Source of the DNA: Yuukianura sp. NJ FZ-2021
Taxonomy: Eukaryota
Length of the DNA stretch: 64,000 nt
Direction: 5' to 3'
NCBI GenBank assembly: GCA_046563655.1
Contig: JAJCTO010000012.1
Location: forward strand, 186,001-250,000
Below, piece by piece: positions 6,854 to 30,317 of the stretch (position 1 is its first letter; every line of letters begins with the position of its first letter). The translations under genes were made by a program, and so were the position numbers. The notes below the pieces were generated by a model, which saw only the letters and a list, made by a program, of their open reading frames with translations, was not told where the DNA came from and did no database searches.

Positions 6854-6913
6854 AACGTGCTCTGTTCAGTTGTTCTTATTTAGTTATTTGGAAGTCATTT
6901 CCTGACTTCCATC

Positions 6914-8122
6914 ATGCCATCATCAATTGTTAGTGATGTGGTTCCAGTCAGTGGAAAGAAAAAGAAAACTCAAGATTACTGGAAGAAGAGACGGGAGTGC
7001 GAATTGAGGTATGGTACTGCTGATAAGAGTCCACAGGAACGTAAGGACATGTTTTTATTCGAGTCTGCTCAACGGAATTCATGGGATGAATTCCCGTACA
7101 AGTATCATCCTCACACGTCATTAGTGAAAATGTTTCGGTTGTGGGATGCAGTTATGGAGCCCTCAAAAGGAAACATCTGTGACGAAAGACAGCTGGTACC
7201 AATTCGCATTATTGATACAGAAGCTAAGTTCATGGTTATGCTTGGTTTGTTGAGAGCCGAACGAGTTATAAGTGTTGACATGGAATTCAGTCATGAGAAA
7301 GGATATCGTGACCGTTATGTTTGTTTAGTGCAGATATCGACTAAGGAATCGGATTTCATCATTGATCCATTTGTCGTGCCCATTCAGATGCAATTGTTAC
7401 GTGAAGTGTTCTCAAATGGAAATTATATCAAGATTCTGCATGGAAGTGTAAATGACATGTTCATGTTCCAGCTCCACTACCAAATCTTCTTCGTGGGTGT
7501 TATTGACACGCAAATGGTGGATTCTGTCTTTGGAGGGACTCAAGGACGTGGATTGGACAAAGTGATTCGTGACTACTTGCCTGGTGTGAAAGTGTGCAAG
7601 GATTGTCAACTTGCTGATTTCAGGATCCGTCCAATTAAAAACATGCATCCAGATATGATTCAGTATGCCAGGAGTGACACACATTTGTTGTTACGTGTAT
7701 TTGAAGTCATGAAGAAACGCTATGACTTCAAAAGTGAAAGTGTTAAGTGGAATGAGGTTGTCCAGTTGTGTAATAATTTGTGCTTAAAAGTATACAAATT
7801 TAAGCCTAATCCAAGTGCCCGTGAGATTATGGCTAAAGTGAGCATATGTGACGTAAGTGTCACTATGATGGAGCAAGTGGTCAGCTGGAGAGACTTGGTT
7901 GCCAGGGAGATGGACGTTCAACCAAAGGAAGTCATTGCTGATGTTACTTGTGCTCAATTGGTCAAGGATGGGCCTAAAAATACGTTGGACATTGTAAAAG
8001 TGATTGGCAAAAATGTTTTGTCATCTGGTCATGTGGATATGCTATTGGAAATTTTTGTATCTACTAAAAGAGTGGGTGGAGTCACAGAAGTTGCTGCTGG
8101 AGAAAATGAGTTACTTTTCTGA
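6914..8122 (+). CDS. Rrp6/EXOSC10 (RNase D family) DEDDy 3'-5' exonuclease + HRDC domain, retrotransposon-borne; C-terminus truncated by satellite
   Basis: ExoI SVDMEF..VCLVQISTKESDFIIDPF; ExoII KILHGSVND; QLADFRIRP; ExoIII YARSDTHLLL; HRDC-like WRDLVAREMD; the last 7 codons derive from satellite. Confidence 0.88.
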   Translation: MPSSIVSDVVPVSGKKKKTQDYWKKRRECELRYGTADKSPQERKDMFLFESAQRNSWDEFPYKYHPHTSLVKMFRLWDAVMEPSKGNICDERQLVPIRIIDTEAKFMVMLGLLRAERVISVDMEFSHEKGYRDRYVCLVQISTKESDFIIDPFVVPIQMQLLREVFSNGNYIKILHGSVNDMFMFQLHYQIFFVGVIDTQMVDSVFGGTQGRGLDKVIRDYLPGVKVCKDCQLADFRIRPIKNMHPDMIQYARSDTHLLLRVFEVMKKRYDFKSESVKWNEVVQLCNNLCLKVYKFKPNPSAREIMAKVSICDVSVTMMEQVVSWRDLVAREMDVQPKEVIADVTCAQLVKDGPKNTLDIVKVIGKNVLSSGHVDMLLEIFVSTKRVGGVTEVAAGENELLF

Positions 8123-10598: not shown

Positions 10599-11134
10599 TG
10601 AGGGGTTGCAATGCCCCGACGACTGGCACACTGGCCACTCGAAATAAATGAGATGATGTGGGGCAGAGATCACGAGAGCTGTAAACGGATAATGAACTTT
10701 ATTTACAGTAATTAGGATAGAGTTTACGTTCTAATGAGAGCCAAATGTTGAATTGATGAAGTGTAGAGGTTGGTGGGGCTCGGTCCTGACAGGATTGACC
10801 AGGTACTGGTCCGGTGGGGCTTGTAGAGGTCACGTCCGTGTCACACAATAGATCCGGCGTGGTCCAGTGGCCAATCCAAGATGGAGGAGATGTGGAGAGA
10901 GACGGGACAAGATCCGGGCAGAGTGACGGTTGGAGTTGGACTGTTGTATGGACAGGAGTGGACTGGAGTGACGATGACGAGACGAGATGCATGTCCAAAT
11001 AGATGATGCAACTTCCCGGTTTTGGTGGTGAGGATATGGAGTTGTTGTTGTGCTGCTGCTGGAAGGACGAAGGGGGAGAAGAGGGGAAAGGGAACCAAAG
11101 TGGCTATAGTGGTTTGTGGGGAATAACCCCCACA
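10599..11134 (-). repeat. 3' LTR of element B (536 bp)
   Basis: Matches 33948-34508 apart from about 9 substitutions, a 24-bp indel and a 1-bp indel (counted by eye). Confidence 0.93.
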
Positions 11135-12451: not shown

Positions 12452-14728
12452 TCAGCGCTTCTTTGGCTTTGCGAGGCGGGAAATGCAAGACAGAGCTTTG
12501 GTGTGAGCCGCGCGTTTCGTACGACCAGAAATCGGAAGTTTGACGCTGGCAGGGGCGCAAACTATGGGGATTTTACTCGCAGCGGGATGCAGGGAATACT
12601 GGGCGGGTAAAATTGGTGGAATTAGGATTTCTGGGTCACGGCTTTGATTTTGGTTATTTAAGTCAACATTAGGGGGGTCAGAATTTTGGTTTGACGCAAT
12701 GGGAAGCGTAACAGGGTCATTTTGCTCAGTTGGAAATGGCAATTTTGGTAAGTTAGAGGACAAATCAGGGTCAGACACTGGAGGGGGGACAAAATCGTTA
12801 TCAGACGACTGAGAGGAACTACTGTCTGCATCAGACGTGTCATAAACACGCTGATTGTAAGGTTTAAGGCGCTGAACGTTCACGACTGTCTCGTGAGGCT
12901 GCCGAGGGGGGACCGAAGTAATTCGAACAGTGCCATTATGGAGGACGTCAATGACTTTGTAAGGGCCAATCCATTTCTTCGTAAATTTGCCGACACGACC
13001 TTTTTTCCGCTGAAAGTTCCTGAGCAGAACTTTCATACCAACGACATAAGTGGGGAAACGGATCTGTAACTGGGCCTTAACTCTGAGTAGCTGCTGCTCA
13101 CGGGACAGCTCGTGGGCTAAGTTATTTGCAACAAATAATCGGTCAAGGGCATCGTCGGGCTCTAAATATTGCTGGGGAAGGGGAAACAGCCTGTCTACCG
13201 GCAAAACCGGCTCCCTACCAAAGACCGGAAAATAAGGAGAAAAATTAGTGACACGATGTACTGAACAATTAATGGAAAATACCACCCTGGGGAGATGTAG
13301 ATCCCAATCCTTGTGGTTTTCACTTACGAATTTGGCGATTACTGACTTTACCGTGCCGTTATGTCTTTCACAGAGGCCGTTAGACTTGGGATTATACGAA
13401 GTCGTGGATCTGTGCTCAATGGCATGGAGGGAAAGGAAATCTTCAAATTCGTCGGAAAGGAAAACCGTACCACGGTCTGACAGAATGATTTTGGGAATTC
13501 CGTGGCGAAAAAGGACGTGTTTGTTAAGCACTTTGATCGCTTGAGCAGAATCTGCTGCGGGAACTGGCCAGGCTTCTACGTAACGGGTATGGAGATCAAT
13601 TACTGTCAGAATGTACTTGTTACGTCTCGTTGTGACTGGGAATGGGCCTAAGTAGTCTAGGGCAATGGTGTGGAATGGAATGGCGGGAACGTCAAGACCG
13701 GCGCTATTTGGCGGGAGAGCAAAATTCCGTCTATTATGGATCTGACACAAGTGGCACGACGTGACAAATTTCACCACATCTCGATACATCCGGGGCCAAT
13801 AGAACCTGGAGCGAAGAAGATGCCAAGACTTGTGTAAGCCGAGGTGGCTAAGGGAGTCGTTATGAACGGATTCCATGGACGATTTTCGGAGGGATTTAGG
13901 GAGACAGAGACGCCAGAGATTGCCAAATTCCGAGTAGTTCATCCGGTACAAAATTCCATCTCGCAGACTGTACTCTCGCAGTTTCTTGGGTTCGGGCAAA
14001 TTATGGGAAGCACAAGTTTGTTCTGCTGTCAAATACTCAATCACAGGAAGCCATTCTGGCTCTTTAAGCTGGAGATCTTTTAGTTTTGCATCTCTAACTC
14101 TTCGTGGGGATACAGGGGAAACCGCTAAGGCGAGAAGATGATGTTCAATGGCCAAATGGTCTGTGTCAGAGGGGGCTGGGTCAACTGGGTTACGCGATAG
14201 GGGATCAGCATCGGTGTGAACACGACCACTCTTATGAACCACGGTAAAATCATAAGGTTGGAGGGCTAAAGACCAACGGGAAATTTGGCCATAGGGGTCT
14301 TTAAATTTTAGCATGTCACAAAGGGAATGGTGTTCAGTGACAACTTTAAAATGACGGCCGTATAAATACGGTCGAAATTTCTCTACAGCCCAAACAAAAG
14401 CCTTCATTTCCAATTGGGGGGTTCCAAATTTCGATTCGGAGGGGGAAACCGCTCTAGAAGCATACGCTACCACTCTCTCTTTTCCGTCCTGAATTTGGCA
14501 AAGGGTCGCTCCAAAACCGAGCCCAGACGCATCACAATGCACGGACGTTTCGGCTTCTTCATCGGGGAACGCAAGGACAGGGGGAGATGTTAATTTGTCT
14601 TTAAGCGTCTGAAACGCTGTTTCGGCTTCCGGGGTCCAATGGAACGGGGTACCACGCTTCCCAGCAACAATAAGATGTAGTGGACGGGCAATTTCTGCAA
14701 AACCCTCGATAAATCGGCGATAGTAACT
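12452..14728 (-). pseudogene. pol: Pol of element B, 3' part (RT connection, RNase H, integrase)
   Basis: Resumes in frame after the element C insertion (SYYRRFIEGFAEIARPL..HCDASGLGFGA); HHCC, DYLGP, SDRG, GPY motifs. Confidence 0.92.
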
Positions 14729-15374
14729 TGTTACGCTCCTTTTTGCGCAATACCGTTGGAAGGGCCCTCTGGGTCAACGTCCGTCTAGCCAAAGGGGTCA
14801 AGGGCCTTAGGGACCCCCTTCCCGGTGAGAGTTCGTCCGTTGTCGTGTAAGGAGTAATAATTAGTAAGTGAATTAAATAAAGAAATGAGGTTTCCCATAC
14901 CTTCTTTCTATTCTTTCTGTGCTTATTTATTCGTAGTGGTGTATCGGGGTACTTAGTGGTGCTATTGGGTAGTCTTCTTCTCAGCTTCCGTCCTTTCTTA
15001 CTTCTAAATTGTGACTGAATGTTATTTATACAGAGGTGCTTAATTGCTTAATTAAGGTTGCTAGGTGGTCGTTAATTGGAAATTTGAATAACAACTTTTG
15101 CTTCCCTAACCGCATTAGCGGCGCTGGCTGTGGTTGTTCTAATTGGATAAATTTTCGATTTTAAATCACTTGGCCTTGTGGTCACTTGGCCTTGTGGTTT
15201 GTCCGCTCAGAAGGAGTTAGCCTGGTGCTTGGAGTGCTTAGTGACTAAGTCTACTTGGCAACTAGATGCGCTTAGCAACTAGGTAGTGCACGTGCGACCT
15301 TGGTCAGTGTTTTGTGGAAGTGAAAGTACAAGTGCAGGTACTGAAAGTATTGTTGTGCAAGTGCAGGTGCAACA
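14729..15374 (-). repeat. 3' LTR of element C (646 bp)
   Basis: Identical to 26979-27624 except one C/T difference seen (15269 vs 27519); purine-rich tract AGGCAGTGGAAAG immediately upstream on the - strand. Confidence 0.96.
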
Positions 15375-15432
15375 CTTTCCACTGCCTAATCTTTTTGTCG
15401 TCCCGACAAAACAAGTGTGTGAAGCTGATGAC

Positions 15433-16683
15433 TCATTCCCGGTTTGGTTGTCGTCGTTCGAGTTCCAGAAGCCTATCCTGCATATCCCGAACCTGGCGTA
15501 CTAAGTCGGGGATGAGGACATCGGGTGGTGGTAAGTCGCCGAGGGTGAGGTGTCGTTGAAGTGCAGTGGGGTATGGCGTCATTCGTCGGCTGGATATGGG
15601 AGTGGTGGATTCTGCGGCTCGTCGGCTCGGTGAGCGTATCTCTTCCACGAATTCGGGGCCAAACCAGACAAGTAACTGTGGAATGAGTTGGGACGCTCGG
15701 GCTTCGTCCATTCCGGGTGGTTTGGGTAACGTGGTAATTCGTCGGGACAGTCCTCTGATGAACTCGAGATTGGTACCGGTCTTCCATCGCATGTAGTCGG
15801 CAACGAAAAGTTGAGTGGGAACGTCCAAGACTCGAGCGACATAAATGATGCTGGCGCGAATGCGTGTATCACGATGGTCGGTTGGTAGGGTATTTGAAAA
15901 GAAGTGAGTTAGGCGAAACGGTTCTGCGGTTTGTTCATGGGTGGTCTCGAGCATGCTTTGTAACAGCGCTGGGATGTCGATTGATCCGATTGCGTAACCG
16001 TCCTGTAGGTACACGGTAATATCTTTCCACAGTTGAGCGATTGTCTCTGTGTGATCAACCATGCGAGGGTCGTCTTGTTGCATGCGGTGTTGGGGGAAGC
16101 CCGCCGGTATGGTGACCGTGGATTGGAAGTAGCTTCTCAAGGTTCGTGGCGCTGCATGGTCTGGCAAACCGAATATGTGGCAGCGGATAGTCTCTACGTC
16201 CAAGACACTGCGAGGGATGACTCCGAAATCTCGCTCAATCCACTGTTGTTGCTCCTTTCCGTTGTAGCAAATCTTCATTATCCGTGGTGATGCAAACAGA
16301 GTTTTCAACGGGCCATGCGTGTCTTCATCTCTGGGGTCCATGATAAAGGTTTTGTTCTTGGATACAATGACCAAACGGCAGATCGCTCCGATGTATGAGT
16401 GTGGCCATTCGAAACAGGCAAAGACAACTGGAGAGAGTTCGATTGCTTGTGAGACATGTGCCGTAACTTCTTCTTTCGTCTTCAAGACCGTGTAGTTAGA
16501 TGGAGGTAGGAGCCATCCTGGCGTCCAAAGTGAATCGTGCATACGAGTTTCGTCAATGTCCAGCACTTCCATCCGGTCTGGGCGTATCATTCGTGCTCCG
16601 TCCGTGAGGTTGCGCACTTGTGTTTGTGCGTACTTGAGTTGTGGGAGGTTCCGTGAGACTGAAGGTGCGATGTCGAATTCCAT
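15433..16683 (-). CDS. Divergent Rrp6/RNase D-like exonuclease-fold + HRDC-like protein, catalytic acidic residues apparently lost
   Basis: HSYIGAICRLVIVSKNKTFIMDP / LKTLFASPRIMKICYNG..QWIERDFGV..SVLDV parallel the Rrp6 ExoI-ExoII regions; VARVLDVPTQLFVAD parallels VAREMDVQPKEVIAD of ORF 6914-8122; splice acceptor + GCCATGG upstream. Confidence 0.65.
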   Translation of the reverse strand: MEFDIAPSVSRNLPQLKYAQTQVRNLTDGARMIRPDRMEVLDIDETRMHDSLWTPGWLLPPSNYTVLKTKEEVTAHVSQAIELSPVVFACFEWPHSYIGAICRLVIVSKNKTFIMDPRDEDTHGPLKTLFASPRIMKICYNGKEQQQWIERDFGVIPRSVLDVETIRCHIFGLPDHAAPRTLRSYFQSTVTIPAGFPQHRMQQDDPRMVDHTETIAQLWKDITVYLQDGYAIGSIDIPALLQSMLETTHEQTAEPFRLTHFFSNTLPTDHRDTRIRASIIYVARVLDVPTQLFVADYMRWKTGTNLEFIRGLSRRITTLPKPPGMDEARASQLIPQLLVWFGPEFVEEIRSPSRRAAESTTPISSRRMTPYPTALQRHLTLGDLPPPDVLIPDLVRQVRDMQDRLLELERRQPNRE

Positions 16684-16802
16684 GGCTAAGGAGTACCTGA
16701 GAAGGTGAAAATTAGATTAGACGTACAGTGTGCATGATTTGGTGTGCATCGTCAGGATCGTCATGAGTCAATTTCTGGGTGTGGGTTGGGTAGCGTTTGC
16801 GC

Positions 16803-19076
16803 TCAATAGTTATAGCCCGGTTCAGGATTTGTGCCGTTTCCCACATTTGTTTCGGCAAATGAGACTCGTCTGGCCTCAGAAAGAGGATAGTCGTAGTAAG
16901 CTTTCGGTGGGGTCTCTGGTTGTTGAGTGGCTTTATGGAGTTCGTTGATCGTCTCGTACTCCGTCTCGATCCGTTCAGCAAGGTTGGCTAGTGCACTGGT
17001 CCTAGGGAACTTCAAGTTCGTCAGTGGGTTGCGTTTCACGACAGGGCTGCTTCGCGTCAATTTGGCAGTTTGGGTGGCGGCTGCATAGGTGATCACCGGC
17101 TCTTCCTGCTGGGTGGCCTGGTTCCGTCGTCGCATGATGCAGTACCAGTACAGCGTGAATATTATGATGATGGTCATCAGAACCAGGGCTAAGGCGAAGT
17201 TGCTAGCATGGTGGTAGTCGACGTGGTCCGGTTGTGCCGCGGCTCCTCGTAGTCTGTCCAGGAACGGCAAGGCGAAGGTCAAGCCCGGGAAGGCTTGCAG
17301 TTGCTTGTAGAGTAGAAACCCTAGTCCCAAAGTGAGGCAGACATTCCAAATGATCAATGCCGTGTTAGTTGATGGCGGAATGATGTGCATCAACTTAGGC
17401 ACCATCATGGTCTTGAGTTGACTGATTTCGGTCAAGTTTAGTCGAGGTGCGTCGAGGTCCCAGGATTCGTTGAAGACTGATTTCAAGTTAGGGAAGACAG
17501 TTTGGCTTCCATAGTTCCAGTCGTGGGCTGGTTTGAGCATGATGTCGATCTTCGACATCATTGCTGGTATGACTATAGTGACTCGTGGTGCGTCCGCCAT
17601 GCCCGTGGGGCATGGATATGGTGGTCGAATTGTCCGTCGTCCTGGAACTTGTAGTTCGCAGTCGCAAGAGAGTCTGACTTCGAGGCTTCCAATCTGGTCG
17701 TTTGGTGGCTGCACGGGGTGAGTCCTGTTGTCCGAGATCCCGCGTTCTCCGCACTGGATCTGCATTCCTTCTGGGGCCCCAGTCAAGATAAATGTGTGGT
17801 AATCCAATTGGGTCACGCTGAAGTCTCCCGGTGTGTTGAGGCACTCGAACAGGCAAACCTCGTTGAGTTCTCTAACGCTAGCACCGCGTAAGAGCCGTTG
17901 GGCGCATAAGTATCCGGTCATCGGGTCGGAGCTGAACTGAGGCACATGGCAAAGTCCAGTTTCCGGGTGGCATTGCTGGAGTTGAGTCCCTTGAATCGTC
18001 ACTAGTTCTTCTTCGTTTACTGCCAAGTAGGCAGGGGCGTGCTGAACAATGCAGGTGCTGCCCTTGTAACTGAACGGCACGTTTATCATTTCGTATAGCT
18101 TCCAGTTGTCTACAAGCTTCTTGATGGGTACCCGAATGCGGTACATAATCCGTCCTCCGTCGCTGAAGGCGCAGTCGGTGAGCTTCAGTTTGTAATACCG
18201 TGTGACTTCGCCAACGGGTATTACGAGTCCGTAGCCATCGGCTAGTAGCTTCCGGCTGGCTTTTTGGAGGTCCGCTGCTAACCTAGTTGGTGGCACTGCT
18301 AGAATGGAAATCGTTTGGGCTCGGCAGTGGTCCTGTAGATCCTTGAAGCGCATTAGTTCTCCAATTTGGTTGAGATAGTCGAATACTTGGAGGAAGGTGC
18401 GTCTGGTGGAGTCTCCTTCTGCGGTTAGAAGACTCAACGTCCTTTGCACGCTTTCGTTGGTTTCTCGCATGGCGGCCTGCTCTTGGTAAAGACGGTTGAC
18501 ATGATCGTGTGCGCTTGAGAAGAGTTTGGAGACATTCTTTCCAAAAAGTTCCATTGAGGTCTTCATGTTCATCACATTTTGGTTGTTTATGACAACCGAG
18601 CCCTTAATGGCTTCCATAAACTTCTCAATGCTCTGGCCGTTCACTTGGAGGTCCTGCATGTCTCTTTTGGAGACGAATCCGCAACAAAAGCTGAACATGT
18701 CGCTGACTAAGGTGAGAGGGTTGAAGGACTGCCATGTGAGGTCTCGCTTCCTGCGTCCAGGGTTTACTTCTGTCATCATCATGTCATCCTTGATGGAGGC
18801 CAGCATCTTAGTGAGGTAGGTTGTGTAGGGTCGTATGTTCACTGGGAAGGTGCAACCTGCGGTTTGCGCGTTCCTGCATGTTCCTTCCATAAAATTTCCG
18901 ATAGGGTTGGTAAAGTTGACTTGGATGTCGTAGACCAAGGGAATTGTAGCAGTGTACAGCTCCGTACCTTTGACCTCCCGAACGAGAGATCCTGTGGTGA
19001 CCCTTACTTCGGTGGGTTGAATTGAGAACGCATTGGTTCCTTCGAGGATGGTTACCAGTATAACCAGCAACTCCAT
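16803..19076 (-). CDS. env: Envelope / class I fusion glycoprotein (errantivirus Env / baculovirus F-like)
   Basis: Signal peptide MELLVILVTILEGTNA, furin site RRKR followed by a hydrophobic fusion-peptide-like segment, heptad region, Cys-rich ectodomain, N-glycosylation sequons, C-terminal TM segments; located after pol. Confidence 0.85.
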   Translation of the reverse strand: MELLVILVTILEGTNAFSIQPTEVRVTTGSLVREVKGTELYTATIPLVYDIQVNFTNPIGNFMEGTCRNAQTAGCTFPVNIRPYTTYLTKMLASIKDDMMMTEVNPGRRKRDLTWQSFNPLTLVSDMFSFCCGFVSKRDMQDLQVNGQSIEKFMEAIKGSVVINNQNVMNMKTSMELFGKNVSKLFSSAHDHVNRLYQEQAAMRETNESVQRTLSLLTAEGDSTRRTFLQVFDYLNQIGELMRFKDLQDHCRAQTISILAVPPTRLAADLQKASRKLLADGYGLVIPVGEVTRYYKLKLTDCAFSDGGRIMYRIRVPIKKLVDNWKLYEMINVPFSYKGSTCIVQHAPAYLAVNEEELVTIQGTQLQQCHPETGLCHVPQFSSDPMTGYLCAQRLLRGASVRELNEVCLFECLNTPGDFSVTQLDYHTFILTGAPEGMQIQCGERGISDNRTHPVQPPNDQIGSLEVRLSCDCELQVPGRRTIRPPYPCPTGMADAPRVTIVIPAMMSKIDIMLKPAHDWNYGSQTVFPNLKSVFNESWDLDAPRLNLTEISQLKTMMVPKLMHIIPPSTNTALIIWNVCLTLGLGFLLYKQLQAFPGLTFALPFLDRLRGAAAQPDHVDYHHASNFALALVLMTIIIIFTLYWYCIMRRRNQATQQEEPVITYAAATQTAKLTRSSPVVKRNPLTNLKFPRTSALANLAERIETEYETINELHKATQQPETPPKAYYDYPLSEARRVSFAETNVGNGTNPEPGYNY

Positions 19077-19110
19077 TCTGAAGATAGAAGATTTAGGGTT
19101 AGAACTTACG

Positions 19111-22100
19111 CTAAGTAAACCGTGCAGGTTTACGAATTTGTCGCCCTGCGCGTGTGACATAGGGCGTTTGTGACCTTTTGGTCTCATCTATGTCGGCCTT
19201 GTCGACCTTTGTGTCGACCTTCTCCTCTTCCGAGGACTCACTACTGCTCTCGCAACTGTCCTCGCTAGTCGAGGTTGCGGTAGAGCTACTGTCATTCTTT
19301 TCGTCGTCAGAAGTCAGAGGCGACGATGACGTAGGTATTGTAAAGTTTTGAAGCACTGGAGGCGGAGCATTGCCTTCCCCAACTTGAGTCGCTGCTACTC
19401 CCGGAGCAGCTTCAGAGGTCGCAAATTCGAGTAGTGATTCGGAGTATGGCTTAAGATGATCGATGTGGGCCCGAACATGAGGCGCGTCGGGATCGGCGCG
19501 TGGCACGCACCAGTACGAGAGTGGAGAGTGTTTCTTGGTGATGACGTAAGGTCCACGGTATCGCATCGCAAGTTTGCGAGAAGTACCGGGTGCTGGTTTG
19601 TGAACCTTGATGAGTACAAGGTCCCCTTCATTGTATTCGAAATCCCGTCGGCCGACGTTAAAGAGTTTGCATTGGCGTTGTTGGCTCTGTTGGAGACCTT
19701 TGCGTGCCGCGTCTCGTGCTTCCTGCATTCGCCGAATGCGCGTCGGGATGTCGGTGGATAGTCGGACTGTGTCGTACACGATGTCAAGAGGGTGATAGGG
19801 ATGACGACCGTAAAGGATATAATAGCTGCTATATCCAGTAGAGTCCTTGTGCACTGCAGTGTTGAGTGCAAAAACGGCGGATCCAAGATATTTGTCCCAG
19901 TTGCGCTGGTTCGACGAAACGTAGTTGGTGAGGATTTCTTCAATGCTACGGTTGTTCCGTTCCACCAGCCCATTAGTCCTGCTGTGGTATGGCGATGAAT
20001 AGACGTTGGTCGTCCCGATCAGGGAGTTGAATTGTTTGAAGAACGAAGCGGTGAATGTAGAGGCGTTATCCGTAAGGATCGTTTTGAAGACGCCGTGAAT
20101 TTGGATGATTTCCATAAGGAAATCTAGCATCGTTTTTGTAGTATTGTGGCGTATGGCCTTCGCGTAGACGTATCGTGAGAGGAACTCGACTAGGACGACA
20201 ATGTACTTATTTCTCGACTTTGTAGAGGGCAGGGGCCCGATGACATCTACACTGACTCGGTCGAAGAGGTCGCCGACAGGGATGGGTGACAACAGTCCGG
20301 CGGGGTGTGTGTTCCGGACTCGGCGCTTCTGACAGCTGGCACAGTTCCGTACCTACTCGGTTATAAGCGCGTCGAGCCTGAACGCGAATATGCTGTTCCG
20401 AGCCCTGGCAAGGGTTCGGGCGACGCCTAGATGACCCATGAGTACGTCGTCGTGAAAACGAGGTAGAACGGAGTGCATCATGTGCTTCGGAATTACAGGA
20501 AGGTTGGTCTTCGTTAGTTTGCACTTGTACTGTAGGAGGCCGTCGTCTACAGTAAAGCGTTTGTGGAGCTTGCTCCTAGCGTTTGTAGCGAGAATAGCTA
20601 AGATTTTCTGGAGCTTCTCGTCGTTTTGTTGTTGTTGCATGAGCTCGGTACGCGAATCTATCGGGGTAACAAATTGCATTGCGTACCAGTGTACTGGGAA
20701 CTCATCAGTAAATGTCGCAGCGTGATCCTCCACAGGGAAACGTGAGAGGCAGTCTGCTTGAACGTGGGTTTTCCCATTGACGTGCTTTATGGTGTAGTCC
20801 ACGTCTTGGAGTCGTAAAGCCCAACGTGCCAGGCGCGAGTTGCGCAAGTTCCTGCACGTCTTGAGGTAGCAGAGGGCGTGATGATCGACCACAATCGTAA
20901 AGGCTTTGAATCCAATATACTCTCGAAATTTTTCGATTCCCCACAGGACGGCTAGGCATTCTTGTTCACTGGTGTTGTAGCGCTCCTCAGCGCCACGGTA
21001 GGTGCGGCTGGCGTAAGCCACCACGCGTAAAGTGTCTCCCTCTCGTTGGTGGAGTATGGCGGCAATGCCCTTGTTTGACGCGTCTGTGTGTAGCTCGAGT
21101 TCTGCATTCTCATTAAAGAATGCGAGGATGGGTGCGGAAACCAAACATTGGCGAAGAGAATCGAAGGCTCCCTGTTCTTGGTCGCCCCATTGAAAAGCTA
21201 CGGTACTTTTCGTGAGCTCAGTCAGTGGTTTCGCAATTTGGCTGTAGTTCTTGATGAAGCGACGGTAATATCCAGTACAGCCAAGGAACGTCCGAACTTC
21301 GTGAACGTTGGTGGGAGGTCGCATCTCCGTGATGGCCTTAACTTTGTCAGGGTTGACGGCAACACCATCCCCCGTAATTATGTGTCCAAGAAGGGCTAAT
21401 TTCGTCTGCCCGAAATAGCATTTCGGGGGTTGAAGAGTAAGGTTGTAAGCACGAAACTGTCGGAAGACATTTTCCAAGTTGGCCAAATGTGACTGAAAAT
21501 CCTTGGCGAAGACGCATACGTCGTCAAGGTATGCAGTACAAATGGAGTGAATCCGCGTTCCAAGAACTGTCTTCATAAATGCGCTAAAGGCAGCTGGAGC
21601 GCAAGTTAAGCCGAATCCCATGTAGAGGTGTTCGTAAGCGCCAGCATGAGTCACAAAGCTCGTCTTTTCTACGTCGTCCGGATGAATCGGTATTTGGAAG
21701 TAGCCGGACATCAGATCCAGACAAGAGAAGTACTTGGCACCATTCAAGGAGGCCAATAGTTCAGAAATTACTGGCATAGGCCAGTTGATGGTTTTGGTGA
21801 CGAAGTTGAGTTTTCTCCAGTCAATGACCATCCGATACTTGTCACTGTTCGGTTTCTTAACTAAAGAAACTCCAGCGGCCCAAGGGGAGCGGCTTTCTCG
21901 AATAATTCCTGCTTGTAGAAGTTTGTCAACTTCTTCTTCAATTATTTTCTTCTCGGCCGGGCTTTTCTTGTAAGGTGGGCAGCTTACTGGTAGTGCGTCG
22001 CCAGTGTCGATACGGAAAGTTATATCTTTGGCTTTACCAAGTTGGTCCAAATTCCACGCGAAGATGTCGCCGTATTCTAAAATGAGAGCGCGGAGTTGCG

Positions 22101-23063
22101 CTTGTTCGTCGGGGCTTAAGTCTGGATTTATTTGAAGTTGGGCAATATTTTCCCGGGTTGATTCCTGTCGTTGTCGGCGGATTTCCTCCTCTGGTTCCGT
22201 TTCTCGAACCAAAACACGGTAGATATTCCCGACGTTGACTCCGCGGTACAACTTGACAGCGACTGGACGCGGATTATCTATGGGGATTTCGAAGTCTCCT
22301 CCTGCGACATGAGCGAGTCCTGGGGCACAAAGGCCTAACTTGTCGAGGGCTTGACTATTCGGTTCGAAAGCGAGTATTCCTCGGAGCTGGTCAACTGGAA
22401 AGACCTTGATGAGCGTAGTCGAGAATGGTGGCAGCATTGTTTCCTCAACTGTAAGAACTTTTGGCATCGAGGGACCATGAACCTGGGTAGCGTGAACTTG
22501 TTCGCGTTGCATTGTGTTTAGACTCAGTCCAAGTGCTGCTGGGGTACGTAGGTTGAATCCTCGCGGTACCTTCATACCTAGGAACTGGAAAGTTCCATGT
22601 TCCAGCGACTTCGAATACTTCAATTGCAGTTCATGTTCCAATGTAAAGTCATTCCCGAGGATATGTCCGCCAGGACATAAAACTTATGCGTTAGCAGAGT
22701 GGTTGACTTGCGGGAGAATGTGACTTGCCGATAGACGTAACCGAGTACCGTGACCTTCGACCCGTTTGGAAGGTCGAGAGCTGATGAAGAGTCTATGGGC
22801 CTGATTTCGTCCGAGGTGACATTGTTGAGCCGAATTATGCTGACTGGGCATCCCGTGTCAAGGAGACACGAGCATCGTTTGAGTTTTGAGTCTCGTGACA
22901 AAAATATGCTAATTATGAGATTGCCGACTGGATCCGTACTACTAGGGTCTCCTGGAAAAGCTGTATTGCGGGTCATCATAGCTAGAATTGGTCGTGTTGG
23001 ATTAGAGGGTTTAGCGTTTGAGTGGGCTTCAGACCTCTCTACTGTCGCCGCGCTGCGTTTCCC
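19111..23063 (-). pseudogene. pol: Pol of element C (PR-RT-RH-IN) with a frameshift near 22670 and an in-frame TAG at 20353-20355
   Basis: PR LLDTGC and HILGNDF lie in different frames; RT YLDD; RH HTDASNKG; TAG between the HH and CC of the integrase zinc finger with both sides in the same frame; DVIGP, TDNA, GPY. Confidence 0.92.
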
Positions 23064-24508
23064 TGAGCCGTTACGGTTCGTCCTGCCGTTGGAGCTGAAG
23101 CTACAGCTTCGGAAGAGTTGCCTCTGTGTTCCGGTTGTCGCCGGGGGCAATCGAACGTAAGGTGTTCTCCGTCACATTGAGCGCAGCGAGGGTCCCGAAT
23201 AGTGTTCCTCAGATATGATTGGTAGCGAGAGCACTCCGCTCGCCGGTGTTCCGGTGATCCACACTCGAAGCATCCACGGAACGTAGGGCGGTCTTGCCAT
23301 GGTCGCCATGGGCGACCGTTGCTGCGCTGTCCAGAGCTGTATGGATTGGTTCCCTGAGATTGACGTGGTTGATCGCGATTGTACCCGTGGCCTGCTTTGC
23401 CCCATGCTGGGCGCCGTTTCACCGTGCGTCGCTCCACAGCTTGTGGTTCCGCTGGTGCTTCCAAGTTCATGTTGTTGAAACGTGCAGTCAATCGGGGTAG
23501 ATCGGTGCCTGCCCGTTTCCGCTTCATCATGAAGTCGTAGTTCTCCTTTTCGATAAGAAACTGCGTCACATCTTGCGGCGTCTTCGGTTGACGTAGGAAT
23601 ATCTCGTGACTGACATCTGCTGGCAACCCCTTGAGCAGGAAGTTGACCCGCTTTTCGTCCTTCATGGTGGTCCCTTGGCTTTTGTCCAACTGGTCACATA
23701 GTCGCAGCACCTTGCCGCAGTAGTCTTCCACGCTCTCTTTTGGATTTCTCTTCCGTTGAGCCAAGCGGTATTCCAATTCTTCTTCAGTTAGCCGTGACTT
23801 GAAGCTAGTGTGGAATCCCTCCTTTAGGGTCTTCCACGGAAGGGCGACAACGTCGCCGTTGGCATCTCGATTGGCTGGGTCACGCTCCCAGTCAGTGCGA
23901 AAGTTCAAGAACCAAGTCTTCGCGTAGCCCTTGAGGTAAAGCGGCAGATGGCGCACTTTCGCAGCCTCGTCCCAACGTTGATTAACAGCTATTGCCTTGA
24001 AAGTCTCCCAGAAATTCCTGGCTGGGTAACCTCGCTTCCCTTCGAATGTTGAATCGCCCGGTGGTGTCCAAACGGATACCACAACACTCGGTGCGGGAGT
24101 CGTCAGCATAACAGGCTGCTGAGGTCCCGGAGTAGGTGGCGTGCCTGTGCCTCCTGGCGTTCCAGATGCTTGTGGCTGTCCACCACCGGTTAGATTCACA
24201 ACTGGGACTATTGAGCTTGGCCCACCAGCTCCTGCTGGCGGCGTCGGTGGGGTAGTCGTTGCGGGCACCGGAAAAGTGAACGCGCTCCCGGTCCCTCCGG
24301 CGGGTCCTGTTGTCCCGCCCGTTTGGCCCGTTGCGGGGCTAACGACAGGGTCGTTAGGGCTTGTCGCCGCACCGGCTCCTGCCGTGGGCGTCTTCGGTCG
24401 TTGCCGATCCCGTTCTTTTGCCTCCTTCAGTATTGCGGAGAGGTCCGCAGGTCCGTACGTTGGTGGAGTCCCGTCCTGCCGGGTGTGTCGATGAGCTGGA
24501 TCCGACAT
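23039..24508 (-). CDS. gag: Gag of element C
   Basis: Capsid-like LYLKGYAKTWF...ESVEDY; knuckles CFECGSPEHRRAEC and CAQCDGEHLTFDC. Confidence 0.92.
   Translation of the reverse strand: MSDPAHRHTRQDGTPPTYGPADLSAILKEAKERDRQRPKTPTAGAGAATSPNDPVVSPATGQTGGTTGPAGGTGSAFTFPVPATTTPPTPPAGAGGPSSIVPVVNLTGGGQPQASGTPGGTGTPPTPGPQQPVMLTTPAPSVVVSVWTPPGDSTFEGKRGYPARNFWETFKAIAVNQRWDEAAKVRHLPLYLKGYAKTWFLNFRTDWERDPANRDANGDVVALPWKTLKEGFHTSFKSRLTEEELEYRLAQRKRNPKESVEDYCGKVLRLCDQLDKSQGTTMKDEKRVNFLLKGLPADVSHEIFLRQPKTPQDVTQFLIEKENYDFMMKRKRAGTDLPRLTARFNNMNLEAPAEPQAVERRTVKRRPAWGKAGHGYNRDQPRQSQGTNPYSSGQRSNGRPWRPWQDRPTFRGCFECGSPEHRRAECSRYQSYLRNTIRDPRCAQCDGEHLTFDCPRRQPEHRGNSSEAVASAPTAGRTVTAQGNAARRQ
23057..23063 (-). promoter_or_regulatory. 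-1 frameshift slippery site G_GGA_AAC (gag to pol, element C)
   Basis: Canonical heptamer 5 codons before the gag stop; the -1 frame leads into the protease. Confidence 0.75.
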
Positions 24509-25929
24509 GGTTTACTTCGTCTTCTTCTTCTTCTTCTGAAAGGATCAGATGATTAGTTGTATTTGGTCCCCTAGGGCGTGGGATGATGTAGGGTCGAGGG
24601 TTGGACAACTTCCTCCCTCGGCATTTGCAGAAAAATGAAATAGCTATTGCCCCCATGCCGGCTAGTAACCCTACTATGAAACCGCGCATGAAGGTGTCGG
24701 GGTTGAATATGTCGGACATAAGGTGGGCAGTTTGACAGTCTACCCCCAGTTGAAGATATGCGTATAGGGACTTGTCCATGAGTAGCTTGTTTTCCCGGGT
24801 TATCAGCTGGACCCGGCCTTTCTCGTAAGTGTAAACGCCTCGTTCCGTGTCCCGAATACCGACAAGGCGTAGATCTCGTAGGTGAGGGTAGGGCATGTAG
24901 ATGTCGGGCTCGTCCCATAAGGTTTGTATCATGCCCTTCTCTAGGTATAGCGGCCTCCATCCAGTAGTCAGCTTGATCCAAAGGGTGTGTTCTGATGGGA
25001 AGTACCCCAAAACTGGGTATGTAATGCCAAAGATACTTCGGTGCTTGAGTCCTGGTGTGATTAGGTGGCCGTCTGATGAATATACTCCGATTTGGTCGTC
25101 AACCATAACATAGAGGTAACTCGCGACGCCGACTGTGAAGTTGATTCGGCCGTCCGGCGGGAAGTCCTCGAAGAAATCGGCATTCTGCACTGGAGTAGGA
25201 AGTAGTGTCCCAGCTCCTGTAACTTTAACGTGACTTTTCCCGTGGAACAAGAGGTGGTCCCCATTGAGGTATCCAACATGATCGTACCACAGGGTACTCA
25301 GGCCTCGGATGTTTTCTCCATCCGGCCCTTCGTCGAAGAATCCTGGTGGGTACAGGACTTTCAGTGCTTCTTCGTCGGGAACTCTTTTCCGTAACGTGCG
25401 GCCAGAACTGGTACCATGCTGTCATCACAGATCCTATGGCACGAGTGTGTGGCAAGGCCAAGGCGTGGCCTATTTCGTGTAGGAGTACCGAAAATAGATT
25501 GACGTGTTCGTCGTCTTCTCCGAGAGACCAAGTCTCGTTTGCGTCTAGGTGGATTTGTCCGCCCATAACTGATCCTGGATAGTGGGGGTGGGCTAGTGTG
25601 CCTCCGCGTCCGTCACTGGCGTCATCATGAATTTCGTGTTCGAAAGTGATGGGGATGTCAGCACTGCCTTCTACGTAAGTAAAGGTGAAGTTGGAATAGC
25701 GTTGCCACTTCACAAACGCCAGACTGGCGTCTGCCAGTGCTTCTTCTCGGTCCATATCATATGGAGTAGGTCCAAGGGTCCAGGTAAGGTCCCTCTTGGT
25801 CCACCGGTGAGGGTTCACCGGACTTCGTCGAGTTCGTGTCGCCGGTGCCCACGGGCACATCATCGTTCCGGCGACCTCTGCAGCAAGCGTCGCTCCGACG
25901 CAAAATACAAGGAGCATCCGTGGAGTCAT
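24354..25929 (-). pseudogene. Membrane-type matrix metalloproteinase-like gene (signal peptide, furin site, M10A catalytic domain, hemopexin-like repeats, TM), single frameshift near 25385
   Basis: RTRR|..RWTKRDLTW, DGRGGTLAH, GQIHLDANETW, HEIGHALALPH (25447-25479), Met-turn GSVMTAWY; the +1 frame continues PDEEALKVLY..WYDHVGYLNGDHLLFHGK..FIVGLLAGMGAIAISFF. Confidence 0.85.
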
Positions 25930-26958
25930 ACCGTCCAGGTATCCTGTAACAGGGTTGAACCGCCAAGGTTCGGTAATTTGTTTCATTGCTTCGTTTGTAG
26001 CCTCGTTGTGTTTCGCTCCTCGGGGTATGCGACAGGTGTCGAAGAAAAACCTCTGTCCTACGTCATCGCCTCTCTCGAGTGGTCGCGACTCCACCCTCAA
26101 AGCGACTTCGATTACTTGCGCTAAATGGGCAGCTGTAGGGTCTGGGACCTCAACATTCTACAGCCCGGTCAAAATTTACACCGTTGCCGAGGTGACGGCC
26201 CACCGTCCCTCAACCCGTTCCTTCACGGAATATTTCTAGACGTTCGGTTTCATCTACGCCAAGCGCGGAGAGCAGTGAATCTTCTATACAAGTCGTTAAT
26301 ACGCCAGCCAGCTACCCAACTGGCTGGGGAAGAAAGTAACGTCGAAAGAGAAGTGACGGAAGGAGTTTCCTACTCCCCCTTCAATTGTGAGAACAATACC
26401 GCCAACCGTGTATAAGTCAAACTGATGGCTACCGCAGTAACCTATGACCTTTGGCTAGAGCCACAGCCCTATACGGTGACCTTTGACCTGAGGCAGAGCG
26501 TGTGTGACAACAATAGAGGACTTTCACCTCAGCGAGGGTCACCTTCTCTATTGTGTCTGTTCGATGCCTGTGAGTACTTGGTCACCAGGGGGGGATAGCA
26601 CTGGTCGCGGTCACTTACGTAGTAGGTAGCTTCGTAGAAATCAGCTTGACTTGTTCGTTGGTTGCCCCAGGGTAGTTGCCCTAGGAGCCCTTTAATACTT
26701 AAATCTAAACTTTATTAGATGTTTGTACGTTATTGTCTTCACATTACGTTATTGTCTTTAAGTTACGTTATTGTCCTAAGTTACTGACTACGTTATAATT
26801 TCGCGCACGCATTCATTCGATACGTTAAATTACGTTAACAGCTGCATTAAAGGTTGCGGTATTGTAGTAACAATAGTCTTGCCTGAACAAAAAGCGCAAG
26901 AAAGAAAAGCAAACAGCGGCAGAGGCGGGAACCTCTTATTGTTTTAAAAGAAATTGCC

Positions 26959-26976
26959 ATCTCGGCAAATGCACCA
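26959..26976 (-). promoter_or_regulatory. PBS of element C, tRNA-Gly(GCC)-like
   Basis: TGGTGCATTTGCCGAGAT 2 nt after the 5' LTR; resembles the complement of the tRNA-Gly(GCC) 3' end (TGGTGCATTGGCCGGGAA). Confidence 0.65.
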
Positions 26977-26978
26977 TT

Positions 26979-27624
26979 TGTTACGCTCCTTTTTGCGCAA
27001 TACCGTTGGAAGGGCCCTCTGGGTCAACGTCCGTCTAGCCAAAGGGGTCAAGGGCCTTAGGGACCCCCTTCCCGGTGAGAGTTCGTCCGTTGTCGTGTAA
27101 GGAGTAATAATTAGTAAGTGAATTAAATAAAGAAATGAGGTTTCCCATACCTTCTTTCTATTCTTTCTGTGCTTATTTATTCGTAGTGGTGTATCGGGGT
27201 ACTTAGTGGTGCTATTGGGTAGTCTTCTTCTCAGCTTCCGTCCTTTCTTACTTCTAAATTGTGACTGAATGTTATTTATACAGAGGTGCTTAATTGCTTA
27301 ATTAAGGTTGCTAGGTGGTCGTTAATTGGAAATTTGAATAACAACTTTTGCTTCCCTAACCGCATTAGCGGCGCTGGCTGTGGTTGTTCTAATTGGATAA
27401 ATTTTCGATTTTAAATCACTTGGCCTTGTGGTCACTTGGCCTTGTGGTTTGTCCGCTCAGAAGGAGTTAGCCTGGTGCTTGGAGTGCTTAGTGACTAAGT
27501 CTACTTGGCAACTAGATGTGCTTAGCAACTAGGTAGTGCACGTGCGACCTTGGTCAGTGTTTTGTGGAAGTGAAAGTACAAGTGCAGGTACTGAAAGTAT
27601 TGTTGTGCAAGTGCAGGTGCAACA
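26979..27624 (-). repeat. 5' LTR of element C (646 bp)
   Basis: Direct repeat of 14729-15374, followed by the PBS on the - strand. Confidence 0.96.
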
Positions 27625-30317
27625 AACTGCAAAGACCAATGAAGGAACGGACACCTCTAACAGTCGTGGGAACGGGGAATTCACGAACTGCTTTTGTTTT
27701 GTTGGGGTCAACTGCAATTCCATCTCTGGAAACAATATGGCCAAGGAATTTCAGAAAATCTTCGCCAAAGTTGCACTTTTTGGGTTTAAGACTCAGACCA
27801 GCTCTTCTAAGGGCACAAAAAATTTGGGCTAAGTGATCCAAATGATCTCCAAAAGTTCGGGAGTAGCAAACCACATCGTCTAAATAAACGAGTGCTATGG
27901 ACCACTTTAAACGGCCTAAGACATTGTCAATTAGGCGTTGCCACGTCGCTGGTGCGTTTGTTAGACCAAAGGGCATTACAACGAACTCATATTGTCCGTC
28001 GGGGGTAACAAAACTGGTCTTTTCTCGGTCCTCAGGCTCCACCTCAACCTGGTAATACGCTTGATCACAATCCATGGAGGAAAAATACTTGGCGCCATTA
28101 AGTCTGTCTAGGGTATCATCAATTCGGGGGAGGGGGTAAGAATCTTTCCGAGTCACTGCGTTGACTTTACGAAAGTCAACACAAAACCGCCAACTTTCGT
28201 CGGGCTTTTTGACCAGAAGGACTGGGGAACACCAAGGGCTATCGCTCGGAGTAATAGCATTGAGATTCAAAAGACGCTCGACTTGGTTTTGAATTTCCCT
28301 CCGCTCAGTAAATCCAGTTCTGTGGGGATGGGAAGCAATCGGTTTAGCAGAACCTGTGTCGATTTTGTGGGTGGTTAGGTGAGTACGGCCAAGGGTAGCG
28401 GGATCAAAATTGAAAACATCCAAATTTGCGACAAGAAAATCTTGCATAATTTGGCGCTGTTCAGGGGTTAGGGAATTTGAAATCTGGAACGCCTCGATCC
28501 TCTTTTGCAGTTTCAGTGTTGCTATTTCAGCGTCATCATTAACCGAAAGTCCTAAGATCTCGTGCGCTGGGAGGGAAGATTGGGAGGATTTAGAGCTAAC
28601 ATGGTCGAATTCATCAAGGTCACAGAGTACTGAAGACTCTGCGAAGGGTTCGAAGGTGCCAATAGAGACGTTTTGAAGAAGTTTCACAGGGCGGTCACTC
28701 AAATTCCACAAGAACGTAACTCCACAACCATCTTTAAGCGTAGAAATAGAATTCCCAATGGCAATATGCTTCGCGTGTTGGAGCTCACGACGAGGGGAAA
28801 CCAAAATATCTCCTGTGAAAGGTAAATCAGTTTTTACGCTGACTCGCTTCATCGTTCTTGGGTTAATGAGGATTGACCTGGCCAGTCTCAGGCACGGAGG
28901 GGGAGTGGAATTTTGAGATAAATTCGAATTGCTCACGAAGGACGCTTCGGAGTCAAGTAGAGAAGGGGAATTTGAAGTATTTTGGGACTGGGATGAATTC
29001 TGAGCCATGTCATTAGCTAGAGTGTTGTGATTTTCGGGAATGGCCGTACATTTGGGAGGGATCGACTCTGGTTCTGCTTCCGAAGACTTTGGGATACTGG
29101 GGCTATCAGAAACTTCTTCAGTTTCTGACAAAGTTAATTTGTTAAGGACAGGGACTTGGGACTTTGGGATACAGACATACTCATTTCTGAGGTCTGTACA
29201 CGGGAGTTCACCTTTTACAAGGCGCTCATTCGCGGGATCCAAAAGAAAATTTTGGGAACGGAGGAAATCTGAGCCCATTTGAAAGGTGCTGGAAGATGTA
29301 AAATGGGTATTGGAAGGAGACGCCAGCAATTGAGAAAGTGATCATTGTAGTTTGGGGGGAACCACAACGAACGTAAGAACCAAAAGAAAGTTTGACACGA
29401 ACAGGTTGAACATCAACCGCTTGGGAAACAATATTGGGGAACCTCCTTAGAAAATCAGGGTGGACACAACAAAGAGAAGCACCTGTATCACACAGGACTC
29501 GAAGAGTCGTAGAACCAAAGACAACATTGGTGTGGAAAGTAGAATGGGGGGTGGAGTCAATTCCAGAAATGAACTTTGCAGCTGAGATTCCCGAAGGAAA
29601 CTCGGAATCATGGCTTGGGGACTTAGGTGGGGAATCAAAATCGAAAGAAGTGGGATCTGGAACTTTGGAATTTGCAGCTGAGAACTCAGGAGCCGAATAA
29701 TTTACCCAGTCAGCGACTCGGCTTACATTGGAGGGGCTAATGCCAAATTTGGAAGTGACAGAAACGGCTAGTGGGTTTGGTTGAGTAGGGCCACACACAA
29801 ATTCAGAAGGGCAAGGTTCGGAAGGGCCAACCCAAACAGAAACAAACTTTGGTACTGCAGCAGTAGGTTGAGTAGAGGGAAGAACAGAAGTAGTAGTAGC
29901 GGCGGTTGTAGTTGTAGGTCCCAGAAGGGAAGAAATGTGAGTAGCGGCGGAGTTACGAAGAGAAGTAGGGACTGTAGGAACTGCAGCGTCAGAACAAAAG
30001 TTTGGGAAAGTTGTAGTAACCTCCCCAACGACCAAAGGTGAAATAGGCTGGGGGTTTGATTTAGGACAAGTTCGGTGGTGGTCAAAAAGAGCTTGTAGTT
30101 TGAAAAGAAACTCTTCTGGAATGATTGGAATTTTAGAATTGTGCTTCCTGCCAAAAGCTGAACAATTCTTGTGGGTATGAAATTTAGGTTGTTTGATTTT
30201 TCGGAATTTGGGACGTGTTGGACAAACCCTGGGTGGGGCTTGTATCTTAATTTGAGAGACTGGATTGGGTGGTAATAGAAGCTGTCGTCCCTGCAACGGC
30301 AGCTCTATTGGTTTTCC
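27625..30317 (-). pseudogene. pol: Pol of element B, 5' part (S/T/P-rich spacer, protease, RT), frameshift near 29280-29300, interrupted by element C
   Basis: PR LCDTGAS in 29226-30401; GSDFL, WRFCVDFRKVN and YLDD in 27554-29329. Confidence 0.9.
30280..30317 (-). promoter_or_regulatory. -1 frameshift signal G_GAA_AAC + hairpin (gag to pol, element B)
   Basis: GGAAAAC at 30317-30311 just before the gag stop; downstream stem AGCTG(C)CGT/ACG(A)CAGCT. Confidence 0.6.

Follow-up and report, generated by a model that had tools for sequence, protein, structure and literature searches.

A predicted membrane-anchored matrix metalloproteinase encoded upstream of gag in an env-carrying Ty3/gypsy element of Yuukianura sp.

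Retroviruses and long terminal repeat (LTR) retroelements are known to acquire envelope genes as well as a small number of accessory enzymes (dUTPase, esterase and exonuclease, for example), and the matrix metalloproteinases (MMPs) of granuloviruses have reported roles in tissue breakdown. Errantiviruses, the env-carrying Ty3/gypsy elements of invertebrates, were surveyed by Chary and Hayashi (eLife 2026, PMC13524379); the main text of this survey contains no mention of metalloproteases, MMP or matrixin. LTR retrotransposons of bdelloid rotifers carry captured enzymatic open reading frames (ORFs), including RNase D-like DEDDy exonucleases (Rodriguez, Kenefick and Arkhipova 2017, PMC5408684). 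These extra ORFs lie downstream of pol as ORF3, and the available part of the paper mentions no metalloproteases, MMP or peptidase and describes no gene upstream of gag (PMC5408684). A full-text literature search, covering texts without their supplements and judged mostly from listings of partly available sources, returned no description of a retroelement-borne MMP. The stretch of DNA analysed here (the window: 64,000 nt of contig JAJCTO010000012.1, assembly GCA_046563655.1, Yuukianura sp. NJ FZ-2021) contains a 12.9 kb LTR element, located at 14729–27624 on the minus strand, which encodes a predicted MMP upstream of gag and carries every feature discussed below in connection with this gene.

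The genes of this element are arranged in the order MMP, gag, protease (PR), reverse transcriptase (RT)-RNase H (RH)-integrase (IN), F-type env and an RNase D-like ORF. As far as the available part of the survey describes errantiviruses, the element shares with them the LTRs, a 4-bp target-site duplication, gag, PR, RT-RNase H-integrase and an env of F type that includes a furin-type site (PMC13524379). It also resembles them in having multiple genomic copies. It differs from them by the addition of a 1.6-kb MMP gene between the leader and gag and of the RNase D-like ORF after env, the latter being paralleled by the DEDDy exonuclease ORFs described in the available part of the work on bdelloid LTR elements (PMC13524379, PMC5408684). 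The 5' LTR (26979–27624, minus strand, TG..CA ends) and the 3' LTR (14729–15374, minus strand) form a direct repeat with only 1 mismatch (27519 vs 15269) over ~646 bp. They are flanked by a 4 bp target-site duplication, AACT, found at 27625–27628 beyond the 5' LTR and at 14725–14728 beyond the 3' LTR. LTRs with a target duplication, gag, a pol in the order PR-RT-RH-IN and a fusogen-type env 3' of pol are thus all present. Because of the LTRs, the gag/pol order and the evidence for an F-type Env, this element belongs with the env-carrying Ty3/gypsy elements covered by the available part of the survey (PMC13524379). An earlier reading made from the sequence alone (hereafter the sequence-only reading) had placed the MMP gene upstream of gag in an Env-bearing LTR retroelement, and the LTRs, the duplication and the F-type env bear this out. 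Taken as a whole, the element represents a Ty3/gypsy lineage that carries env and, in addition, an accessory gene of a new class.

The MMP gene is split in the window by a single frame change, located at ~25383–25402 by three-frame translation, between the catalytic part and the remainder of the protein; the stop-to-stop frames around this break extend over 26157–25225 and 25421–24354. The first frame (25225–25986, minus strand, 253 aa) matches Pfam Peptidase_M10 (PF00413) with an E-value of 6.8e-35 (120.7 bits, cut-off 24) over profile positions 1–138 of 159, and the last 21 positions of the profile lie past the break. It also matches 111 distinct MMP sequences from PDB, the best one being stromelysin-3 (MMP-11, 1hv5, E 1.3e-23); in the protein library, 3953 sequences match it at E≤0.001. 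The three zinc-binding His and the catalytic Glu are kept in the zinc motif HEIGHALALPH (25447–25479), which has an Ala (25456–25458) in the Gly position of HExxHxxGxxH. A Met-turn follows, with its Met at residue 188 (25423–25425), and the His/Asp/His/His positions of the structural zinc are aligned and identical in the alignments with MMP-11 and MMP-1. From these data, which exceed by far what chance would give, the first ORF is a matrixin (peptidase family M10A).

According to its translation, this ORF begins with a hydrophobic, signal-like N-terminus. About 14 residues, containing a lone Cys within MMCPW, separate the signal-like core from a furin-type site RTRR (25825–25836), where cleavage is predicted; the catalytic domain (~25405–25806) comes directly after this site. 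Neither a PG-binding prodomain nor a PRCGxPD cysteine switch was found in the window MMP by Pfam and translation. A PRCG-type switch is not universal among the 150 best relatives, as a regular expression detects it in 43 of them. The sequence-only reading had described the signal peptide, the short pro-segment lacking a switch, the RTRR site, the M10 motifs with three zinc His and an Ala for the Gly, and the Met-turn, all of which are confirmed. It had placed the start at 25929, which is a possible start; the ORF opens at 25986, 25929 being its second Met. The same reading had called the protein a membrane-type MMP. This description holds for the furin-type site, the hemopexin-like domain, the transmembrane helix and the tail (see below). 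It does not hold for the MT-loop, which is a feature of the catalytic domain in the MT-MMP subfamily: no such insertion was found, the aligned query span being 135 residues, versus 146 in MMP-16 (1rm8) and 136 in MMP-1.

The second frame (24354–25421, minus strand) encodes a linker, a putative hemopexin-like domain, a transmembrane helix (24627–24683, read from the sequence), a basic stop-transfer sequence and an acidic cytoplasmic tail that extends to 24354 and overlaps gag, from its ATG at 24508, by 155 nt. The hemopexin-like domain (~24732–25310) is diverged, beta-rich and ends in a Cys. This frame gives no Pfam match even at E 10. When compared with a profile of 20 hemopexin regions taken from the MMP matches, it obtains an hhalign score of 26.4 (P 0.0032), exceeding 200/200 shuffles (maximum 24.4), and its four hairpin units fall on the four blades. 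The probability of the match to the hemopexin profile reaches 93.6% (E 2.1e-7) when the window sequence is combined with that of its closest relative L002, and 98.8% (7e-17) after addition of three cell-type relatives; both L002 and these relatives are described below. The two top feature hits of the second half in the ESM Atlas are hemopexin clusters (0.89, 185 and 182 shared features). Structure prediction by AF2 from the single sequence yields a mean pLDDT of 34. When an alignment of 27 rows is supplied, the model shows a helix (233–257) and four groups of beta-sheets, with a mean pLDDT of 53 and confidence at residues 35–115 only; this alignment consists mostly of known hemopexin MMPs and is not independent, so that the model is counted neither way. 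Foldseek found nothing in PDB for this model at E≤0.001; the top row is the hemopexin-like domain of vitronectin (E 1.1e-3, TM 0.16/0.25) and the other rows near it are beta-propellers. For the second half, the comparison with L002 is the deciding one: the equivalent region of L002 passes the Pfam Hemopexin threshold and aligns with the window (23% identity, BLASTP E 2e-6), so that the MMP is predicted to be a type I membrane-anchored protein in which a hemopexin-like domain precedes the transmembrane helix and the cytoplasmic tail. The succession proposed by the sequence-only reading (one frameshift, then hemopexin-like repeats, a transmembrane segment and a tail overlapping gag) is supported by the frames, the L002 alignment and hhalign. 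Profile searches, which it had suggested, succeeded for Peptidase_M10; for Hemopexin, Pfam failed on the window alone and succeeded on L002.

L002 is a 4435-nt metagenome contig obtained by searching metagenome contigs with the window pol ORF. Its pol N-terminus is 63% identical to that of the window element and its gag 45% identical (E 3e-95). Other pol relatives do not exceed 43% identity among the 120 listed of 929 matches in the protein collection. L002 thus appears as the closest relative of the element among the sequences compared, which for database pol are those 120 listed of 929. Immediately upstream of its gag, it carries an unbroken ORF of 431 aa that is open at the 5' end of the contig and stops 69 nt before the gag ATG. 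This ORF includes, in this order, RKRR, a catalytic domain, a zinc motif of canonical form (with Gly), a Met-turn, a hemopexin region bounded by Cys, a transmembrane segment and an 11-residue tail. It matches Peptidase_M10 (2.9e-47) and Hemopexin (25.1 bits, cut-off 21.3), and its catalytic part shares 43% identity with that of the window (E 2e-35); the cytoplasmic tails of the two elements are very different. Since L002 carries an unbroken MMP-hemopexin-transmembrane ORF directly before gag, the MMP is conserved across the lineage rather than being a passenger of a single copy. As this ORF has stayed open with its full set of catalytic residues over a time in which gag and pol have drifted apart to 45–63% identity, there is strong evidence, drawn from these comparisons, that it evolves under long-term purifying selection. 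The gene is present and unbroken in this diverged element, so that the outcome named by the sequence-only reading as speaking against it (decay in all copies with dN/dS near 1, or absence from other family members) is not what is observed. No relative was found by searching metagenome and viral contigs with the MMP ORF, or viral contigs with a gag alignment; likewise, a word-indexed homologue search with each MMP half among proteins of near length gave none at E≤0.001.

Other copies of the gene were sought in sequencing runs. Five runs contain part of the 24300–26100 stretch: three of one organism A sample, one of organism B and one metagenome. Run contigs were aligned to 22900–27700 at at least 80% similarity, bridging being judged by alignment lengths. 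Run X1 provides 262 contigs on this segment, with 81, 75, 60 and 46 of them in the bands of at least 99, 95–99, 90–95 and <90%, respectively; X2, X4 and X5 provide 169, 16 and 3, the X2 contigs likewise occurring in all of these bands. The junction between the MMP start and the leader is bridged by one X1 contig (record 7), and a single contig of organism B (X4 record 19) extends from the N-terminus of the MMP across the leader to the LTR edge. The two halves of the MMP are bridged by X1 record 5, X2 record 12 and X4 record 18. All bridging contigs differ in length from the window at the break and place the two halves in one frame (2/2 in X1, 1/1 in X2, 1/1 in X4), and thus in two organisms, which answers the question raised earlier about the frameshift status of other copies. 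Because every bridging contig restores one frame, the frame break would be private to the window copy or would result from an assembly error. Separately, contigs in X1, X2 and X4 join 25864 to 26466 via six other letters. This suggests the existence of a family variant that has lost or exchanged the start of the MMP together with a portion of the leader (25865–26465).

With regard to the origin of the gene, no close cellular donor was found among the library proteins, whose best single-domain matches are 42–47% identical; the highest-scoring library matches rank first only because they have two or three catalytic domains each. Two trees of the catalytic domain were built, one with 147 rows and a careful one with 41 rows. 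The MMPs of the window and L002 are mutual nearest rows in these trees. They are sisters in the 147-row tree (SH-like approximate likelihood ratio test, SH-aLRT, 71), and in the 41-row tree they belong to a five-member group with the Logan proteins P0006, P0022 and P0094 (ultrafast bootstrap, UFboot, 92/SH-aLRT 70), within which these three proteins form a clade (100/97). The three Logan proteins are intronless MMPs from run assemblies and share local motifs near the zinc site with the element MMP. Each starts with a signal peptide and a prodomain of PG-binding type that includes the PRCG switch; their hemopexin region is short and degenerate, and a hydrophobic tail is present at the C-terminus. 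As the nearest tree relatives are cell-type MMPs with prodomains, the gene most likely goes back, on this phylogenetic evidence, to a single capture event in which a membrane-anchored MMP of cell type was taken up, its prodomain being lost later, and the word "captured" used by the sequence-only reading fits the tree. That there was a single acquisition would rest mainly on the shared position and architecture, because the two element MMPs are sisters in the 147-row tree of the catalytic domain and an open fork in the 41-row tree. Compared with cellular membrane-anchored MMPs (vertebrate MT-MMPs and the three Logan proteins), the element MMP has in common the furin-type site, the catalytic and hemopexin-type domains and the C-terminal anchor. 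It differs from them by the lack of a cysteine-switch prodomain and of the MT-loop, the Ala of its zinc motif, its intronless structure and its location between LTRs, and shares ≤44% identity with them.

A search of viral contigs with the MMP alignment identified nine loci: four of baculovirus type, four from unidentified viruses and one from a phage (L010, which encodes a terminase). None of them showed a retroelement gene in the parts examined. Six of eight viral MMP ORFs, including all four of baculovirus type, have no PRCG according to a regular expression. The granulovirus-type MMPs, found in the IMG/VR contigs L004, L005, L006 and L008, resemble the element MMP in that they also comprise a signal, a furin-like basic site and a catalytic domain; of the viral MMPs named by the sequence-only reading, those of granuloviruses are thereby matched by MMPs in actual baculovirus contigs. 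Like the element, baculovirus L004 (PIF-2, 2.5e-171; Baculo_F, 5.1e-193) encodes both a prodomain-less MMP, here carrying RRKR, and an F-type fusion protein. On this contig of ~101 kb, the MMP and F genes are found at 9845–11080 and 12823–14598, 1.7 kb apart, with PIF-2 on the other side. The baculovirus MMPs differ from that of the element by their sequence (31% identity, E 1e-15), by their grouping in a separate clade (100/99), whose link to the retroelement group lacks support, and by their location in the genomes of DNA viruses rather than in a retroelement. The parallel in design between the two is real as far as the sequences go, and common descent is neither shown nor excluded by them.

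The explanation that best accounts for these data, to which we assign a probability of about 0.6, is that the gene encodes a conserved membrane-anchored matrixin that acts at the cell surface and aids the spread of enveloped particles. The mechanism can be viewed as follows. The MMP would enter the secretory pathway through its signal peptide. A furin-type cut at RTRR would suffice for its activation, there being no inhibitory cysteine-switch prodomain, and the same class of protease would be needed for the cleavage of the F-type Env. Owing to the missing latency prodomain, the furin-type site and the membrane anchor, the MMP would already be active on arrival at the surface, where the producing cell, and possibly also budding particles, would present it as a protease with constitutive activity. 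It would then cleave extracellular matrix, basal lamina or cell-surface proteins, allowing enveloped particles to exit the producing tissue and to reach target cells. Passage from soma to germline, the example given by the sequence-only reading, would be one scenario of such spread. As a whole, that earlier interpretation is partly supported.

Several observations weigh against this explanation. The zinc-motif Gly is found in 157/157 motifs of the 150 best relatives as well as in L002, and Ala in 0/157 of these motifs; because of this, the Ala of the window copy is a real oddity that calls for caution about activity, and it may reduce the activity of the organism A MMP. The window copy is broken twice, by the frame break in the MMP and by a stop in the integrase. 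It is a recent insertion and yet defective. Given these two lesions despite near-identical LTRs, it is probably non-autonomous and was mobilised in trans, or was copied from a defective template, or was damaged or mis-assembled later. Displayed within-family differences, synonymous in 6/12 cases for MMP-only sequence and in 5/6 cases for the catalytic/hemopexin core (the remaining one being K>R), count in favour of the explanation, but this sample includes 16 of ~645 differences, selected by the tool for their support, and provides a hint rather than a test. L002 lacks its 5' end and LTRs, and its sisterhood with the window MMP is an open fork in the 41-row tree. No RNA run is found among the runs that contain the 24300–26100 stretch. 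Finally, the substrate, whether basement membrane or another, rests on inference.

The same architecture could also serve another purpose. The MMP might be a sheddase or processing enzyme rather than a matrix degrader. Its targets would be the Env of the element itself, a receptor of the host, or molecules with immune or adhesive roles at the surface of the producing cell, and the benefit could be, for example, a block to superinfection, the freeing of particles or the evasion of recognition. Cellular membrane-type MMPs, which are built alike, shed surface proteins; the membrane anchor and the hemopexin-like domain, a substrate-docking domain, agree with such a role, as does the furin-dependent Env encoded alongside. 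However, this Env already has its own furin-type site, and the fast evolution of the hemopexin-like part (23% identity between the elements) is compatible with both spread and shedding. We regard this function as rather improbable, though it is the strongest competitor of the preferred one among those weighed here. Much less probable is that the gene is a decaying passenger, derived from an MMP cDNA of the host that was transduced into the leader and from which the element gains nothing. The frame break and the Gly-to-Ala change of the window copy, together with the great difference between the cytoplasmic tails of the two elements, point in this direction. They are opposed by the intact L002 ORF with its canonical motifs despite 45–63% identity in gag and pol, by the retention of all zinc ligands and of the Met-turn in the window copy, by the other copies that bridge the break in one frame, and by the mostly synonymous core differences.

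The frame break itself could be read as a site of programmed +1 or -2 ribosomal frameshifting, so that most of the product would be soluble and limited to the catalytic part, and the full-length membrane form would be made less often. The element already includes two -1 steps between gag, PR and RT, and the first frame stays open for 59 codons past the break. These 59 residues have no Pfam match, L002 has both parts in one frame, and the bridging contigs of X1, X2 and X4 differ in length at this place so as to form one frame; such a mechanism is therefore judged very unlikely. It is still harder to credit that the MMP is foreign to the element, whether through a chimeric assembly or because two solo LTRs happen to flank a host gene. 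The window is repeat-rich, with nested elements and satellite arrays that make assembly error-prone, and only 0.65 of the sampled words are present in X1. Nevertheless, the LTRs are near-identical, the 4-bp duplication matches, the pol of another element is cleanly interrupted and gag begins within the MMP frame. The LTR-leader-MMP and MMP-gag junctions are spanned by short-read contigs that come from three studies, and the MMP-gag-pol order is repeated in the independent contig L002. Together, L002 and the contigs across the junctions effectively refute the idea that the gene is not part of the element.

An extension of the preferred explanation, that of a surface matrixin aiding particle spread, can be proposed more tentatively. 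The lineage may be, or may recently have been, an infectious invertebrate retrovirus-like agent, in which the MMP, prodomain-less, activated by furin and bound to the membrane, would be presented on cells or particles next to the F-type fusogen, the two forming a dedicated tissue-invasion kit that opens basal laminae and lets the agent spread from one tissue to another. The same two-gene solution would exist in granuloviruses by convergence or by module exchange with large DNA viruses, and the element would be the first retroelement known with an extracellular-matrix protease. Such a protease would be a new accessory-gene class for retroviruses and LTR retroelements. If true, this would offer a testable answer to the question of how enveloped retroelement particles pass basal laminae toward the germline or other tissues. 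The element MMP would also be a natural MMP stripped of its latency prodomain, in striking parallel with granulovirus MMPs, and the conserved MMP-gag junction provides a simple marker for locating the lineage in animal genomes.

The position of the MMP gene raises the question of how gag and pol are expressed. The leader (25987–26978, minus strand, ~1 kb), delimited by sequence reading and a motif scan, includes a TGG-starting stretch resembling a primer-binding site 2 nt past the LTR, and contains nine ATGs. Because the start of gag is separated from that of the MMP by 27 ATGs, expression of gag-pol probably requires a message that is spliced or internally initiated. The motif scan detected a single donor-like GTAAGT in the leader (26618, minus strand). 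Acceptor-like motifs with a pyrimidine tract and CAG end at 26324, before the MMP ORF, and at 24536, 28 nt before the gag ATG, on the same strand; all these splice-like motifs are consensus matches only and are expected by chance in 2.6 kb. L002 has a TTTTAG 4 nt ahead of its gag ATG. The placement of the donor- and acceptor-like motifs could allow alternative splicing that would give separate MMP and gag-pol messages.

The remaining genes of the element are those of the Ty3/gypsy core, an env and one additional ORF, all on the minus strand. The gag gene (23039–24508) encodes a protein of 489 aa with a CCHC-like end, recognized by Pfam Retrotrans_gag (2e-9) in addition to its similarity to L002 gag. 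The protease frame (22620–23171), assigned from a D[TS]G-like motif in the translation, from its position and from frame arithmetic on stop-to-stop ORFs, has no Pfam match. gag, protease and RT occupy three frames, the passages from gag to PR and from PR to RT each requiring a -1 step. RT, RNase H and integrase are encoded in a single frame (19111–22683) that matches RVT_1 (1.9e-24), RT_RNaseH (1.7e-31) and Integrase_H2C2. It contains one in-frame stop (20353–20355) within the zinc-binding region of the integrase, where the Integrase_H2C2 match is cut at profile position 36/59. Fish, frog, moths, a pseudoscorpion and plants are the sources of the best named protein matches of pol, among the matches listed, at 33–42% identity.

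The env gene (16803–19187) encodes a 794-aa protein whose translation shows a signal, a furin-type site (RRKR) with a hydrophobic peptide behind it, and a transmembrane segment at the C-terminus. It is related to Pfam Baculo_F with E 3.9e-5 and 22.9 bits, slightly below the cut-off of 24.1. In the ESM Atlas, 13 of its 30 feature hits fall within the Baculo_F family set, and the top three clusters reach 0.93 with 201–208 of 256 features shared. No sequence match was found in PDB, and pairwise BLAST against one baculovirus F protein was not significant (E 0.31). Between env and the 3' LTR, an ORF of 416 aa (15433–16683) has weak similarity to RNase D/Rrp6-like 3'-5' exonucleases (Pfam DNA_pol_A_exo1, E 8.9e-5 and 22.8 bits for a cut-off of 23.6; PDB Rrp6 4nlc, E 1.7e-4). 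The first acidic residue of its ExoI motif is apparently not conserved in the alignment.

The MMP element is inserted in the pol of another Ty3/gypsy element, which it splits cleanly. This host element lies on the minus strand; its RT (27554–29341) is found to the right of the insertion, its RNase H-integrase (12452–14773) to the left, and gag-like ORFs reach ~31.7 kb (31695). A third run resembling an LTR retroelement (1759–8122, plus strand) contains four long ORFs, and its pol is 27–33% identical to that of the MMP element according to tblastn. From 34682 to the end of the window (64000) extends a satellite array made up of 155-, 242- and 262-nt units, with a higher-order pattern and a flat GC content of 0.38. 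With this array beside them, the retroelements are located at the border of apparent heterochromatin.

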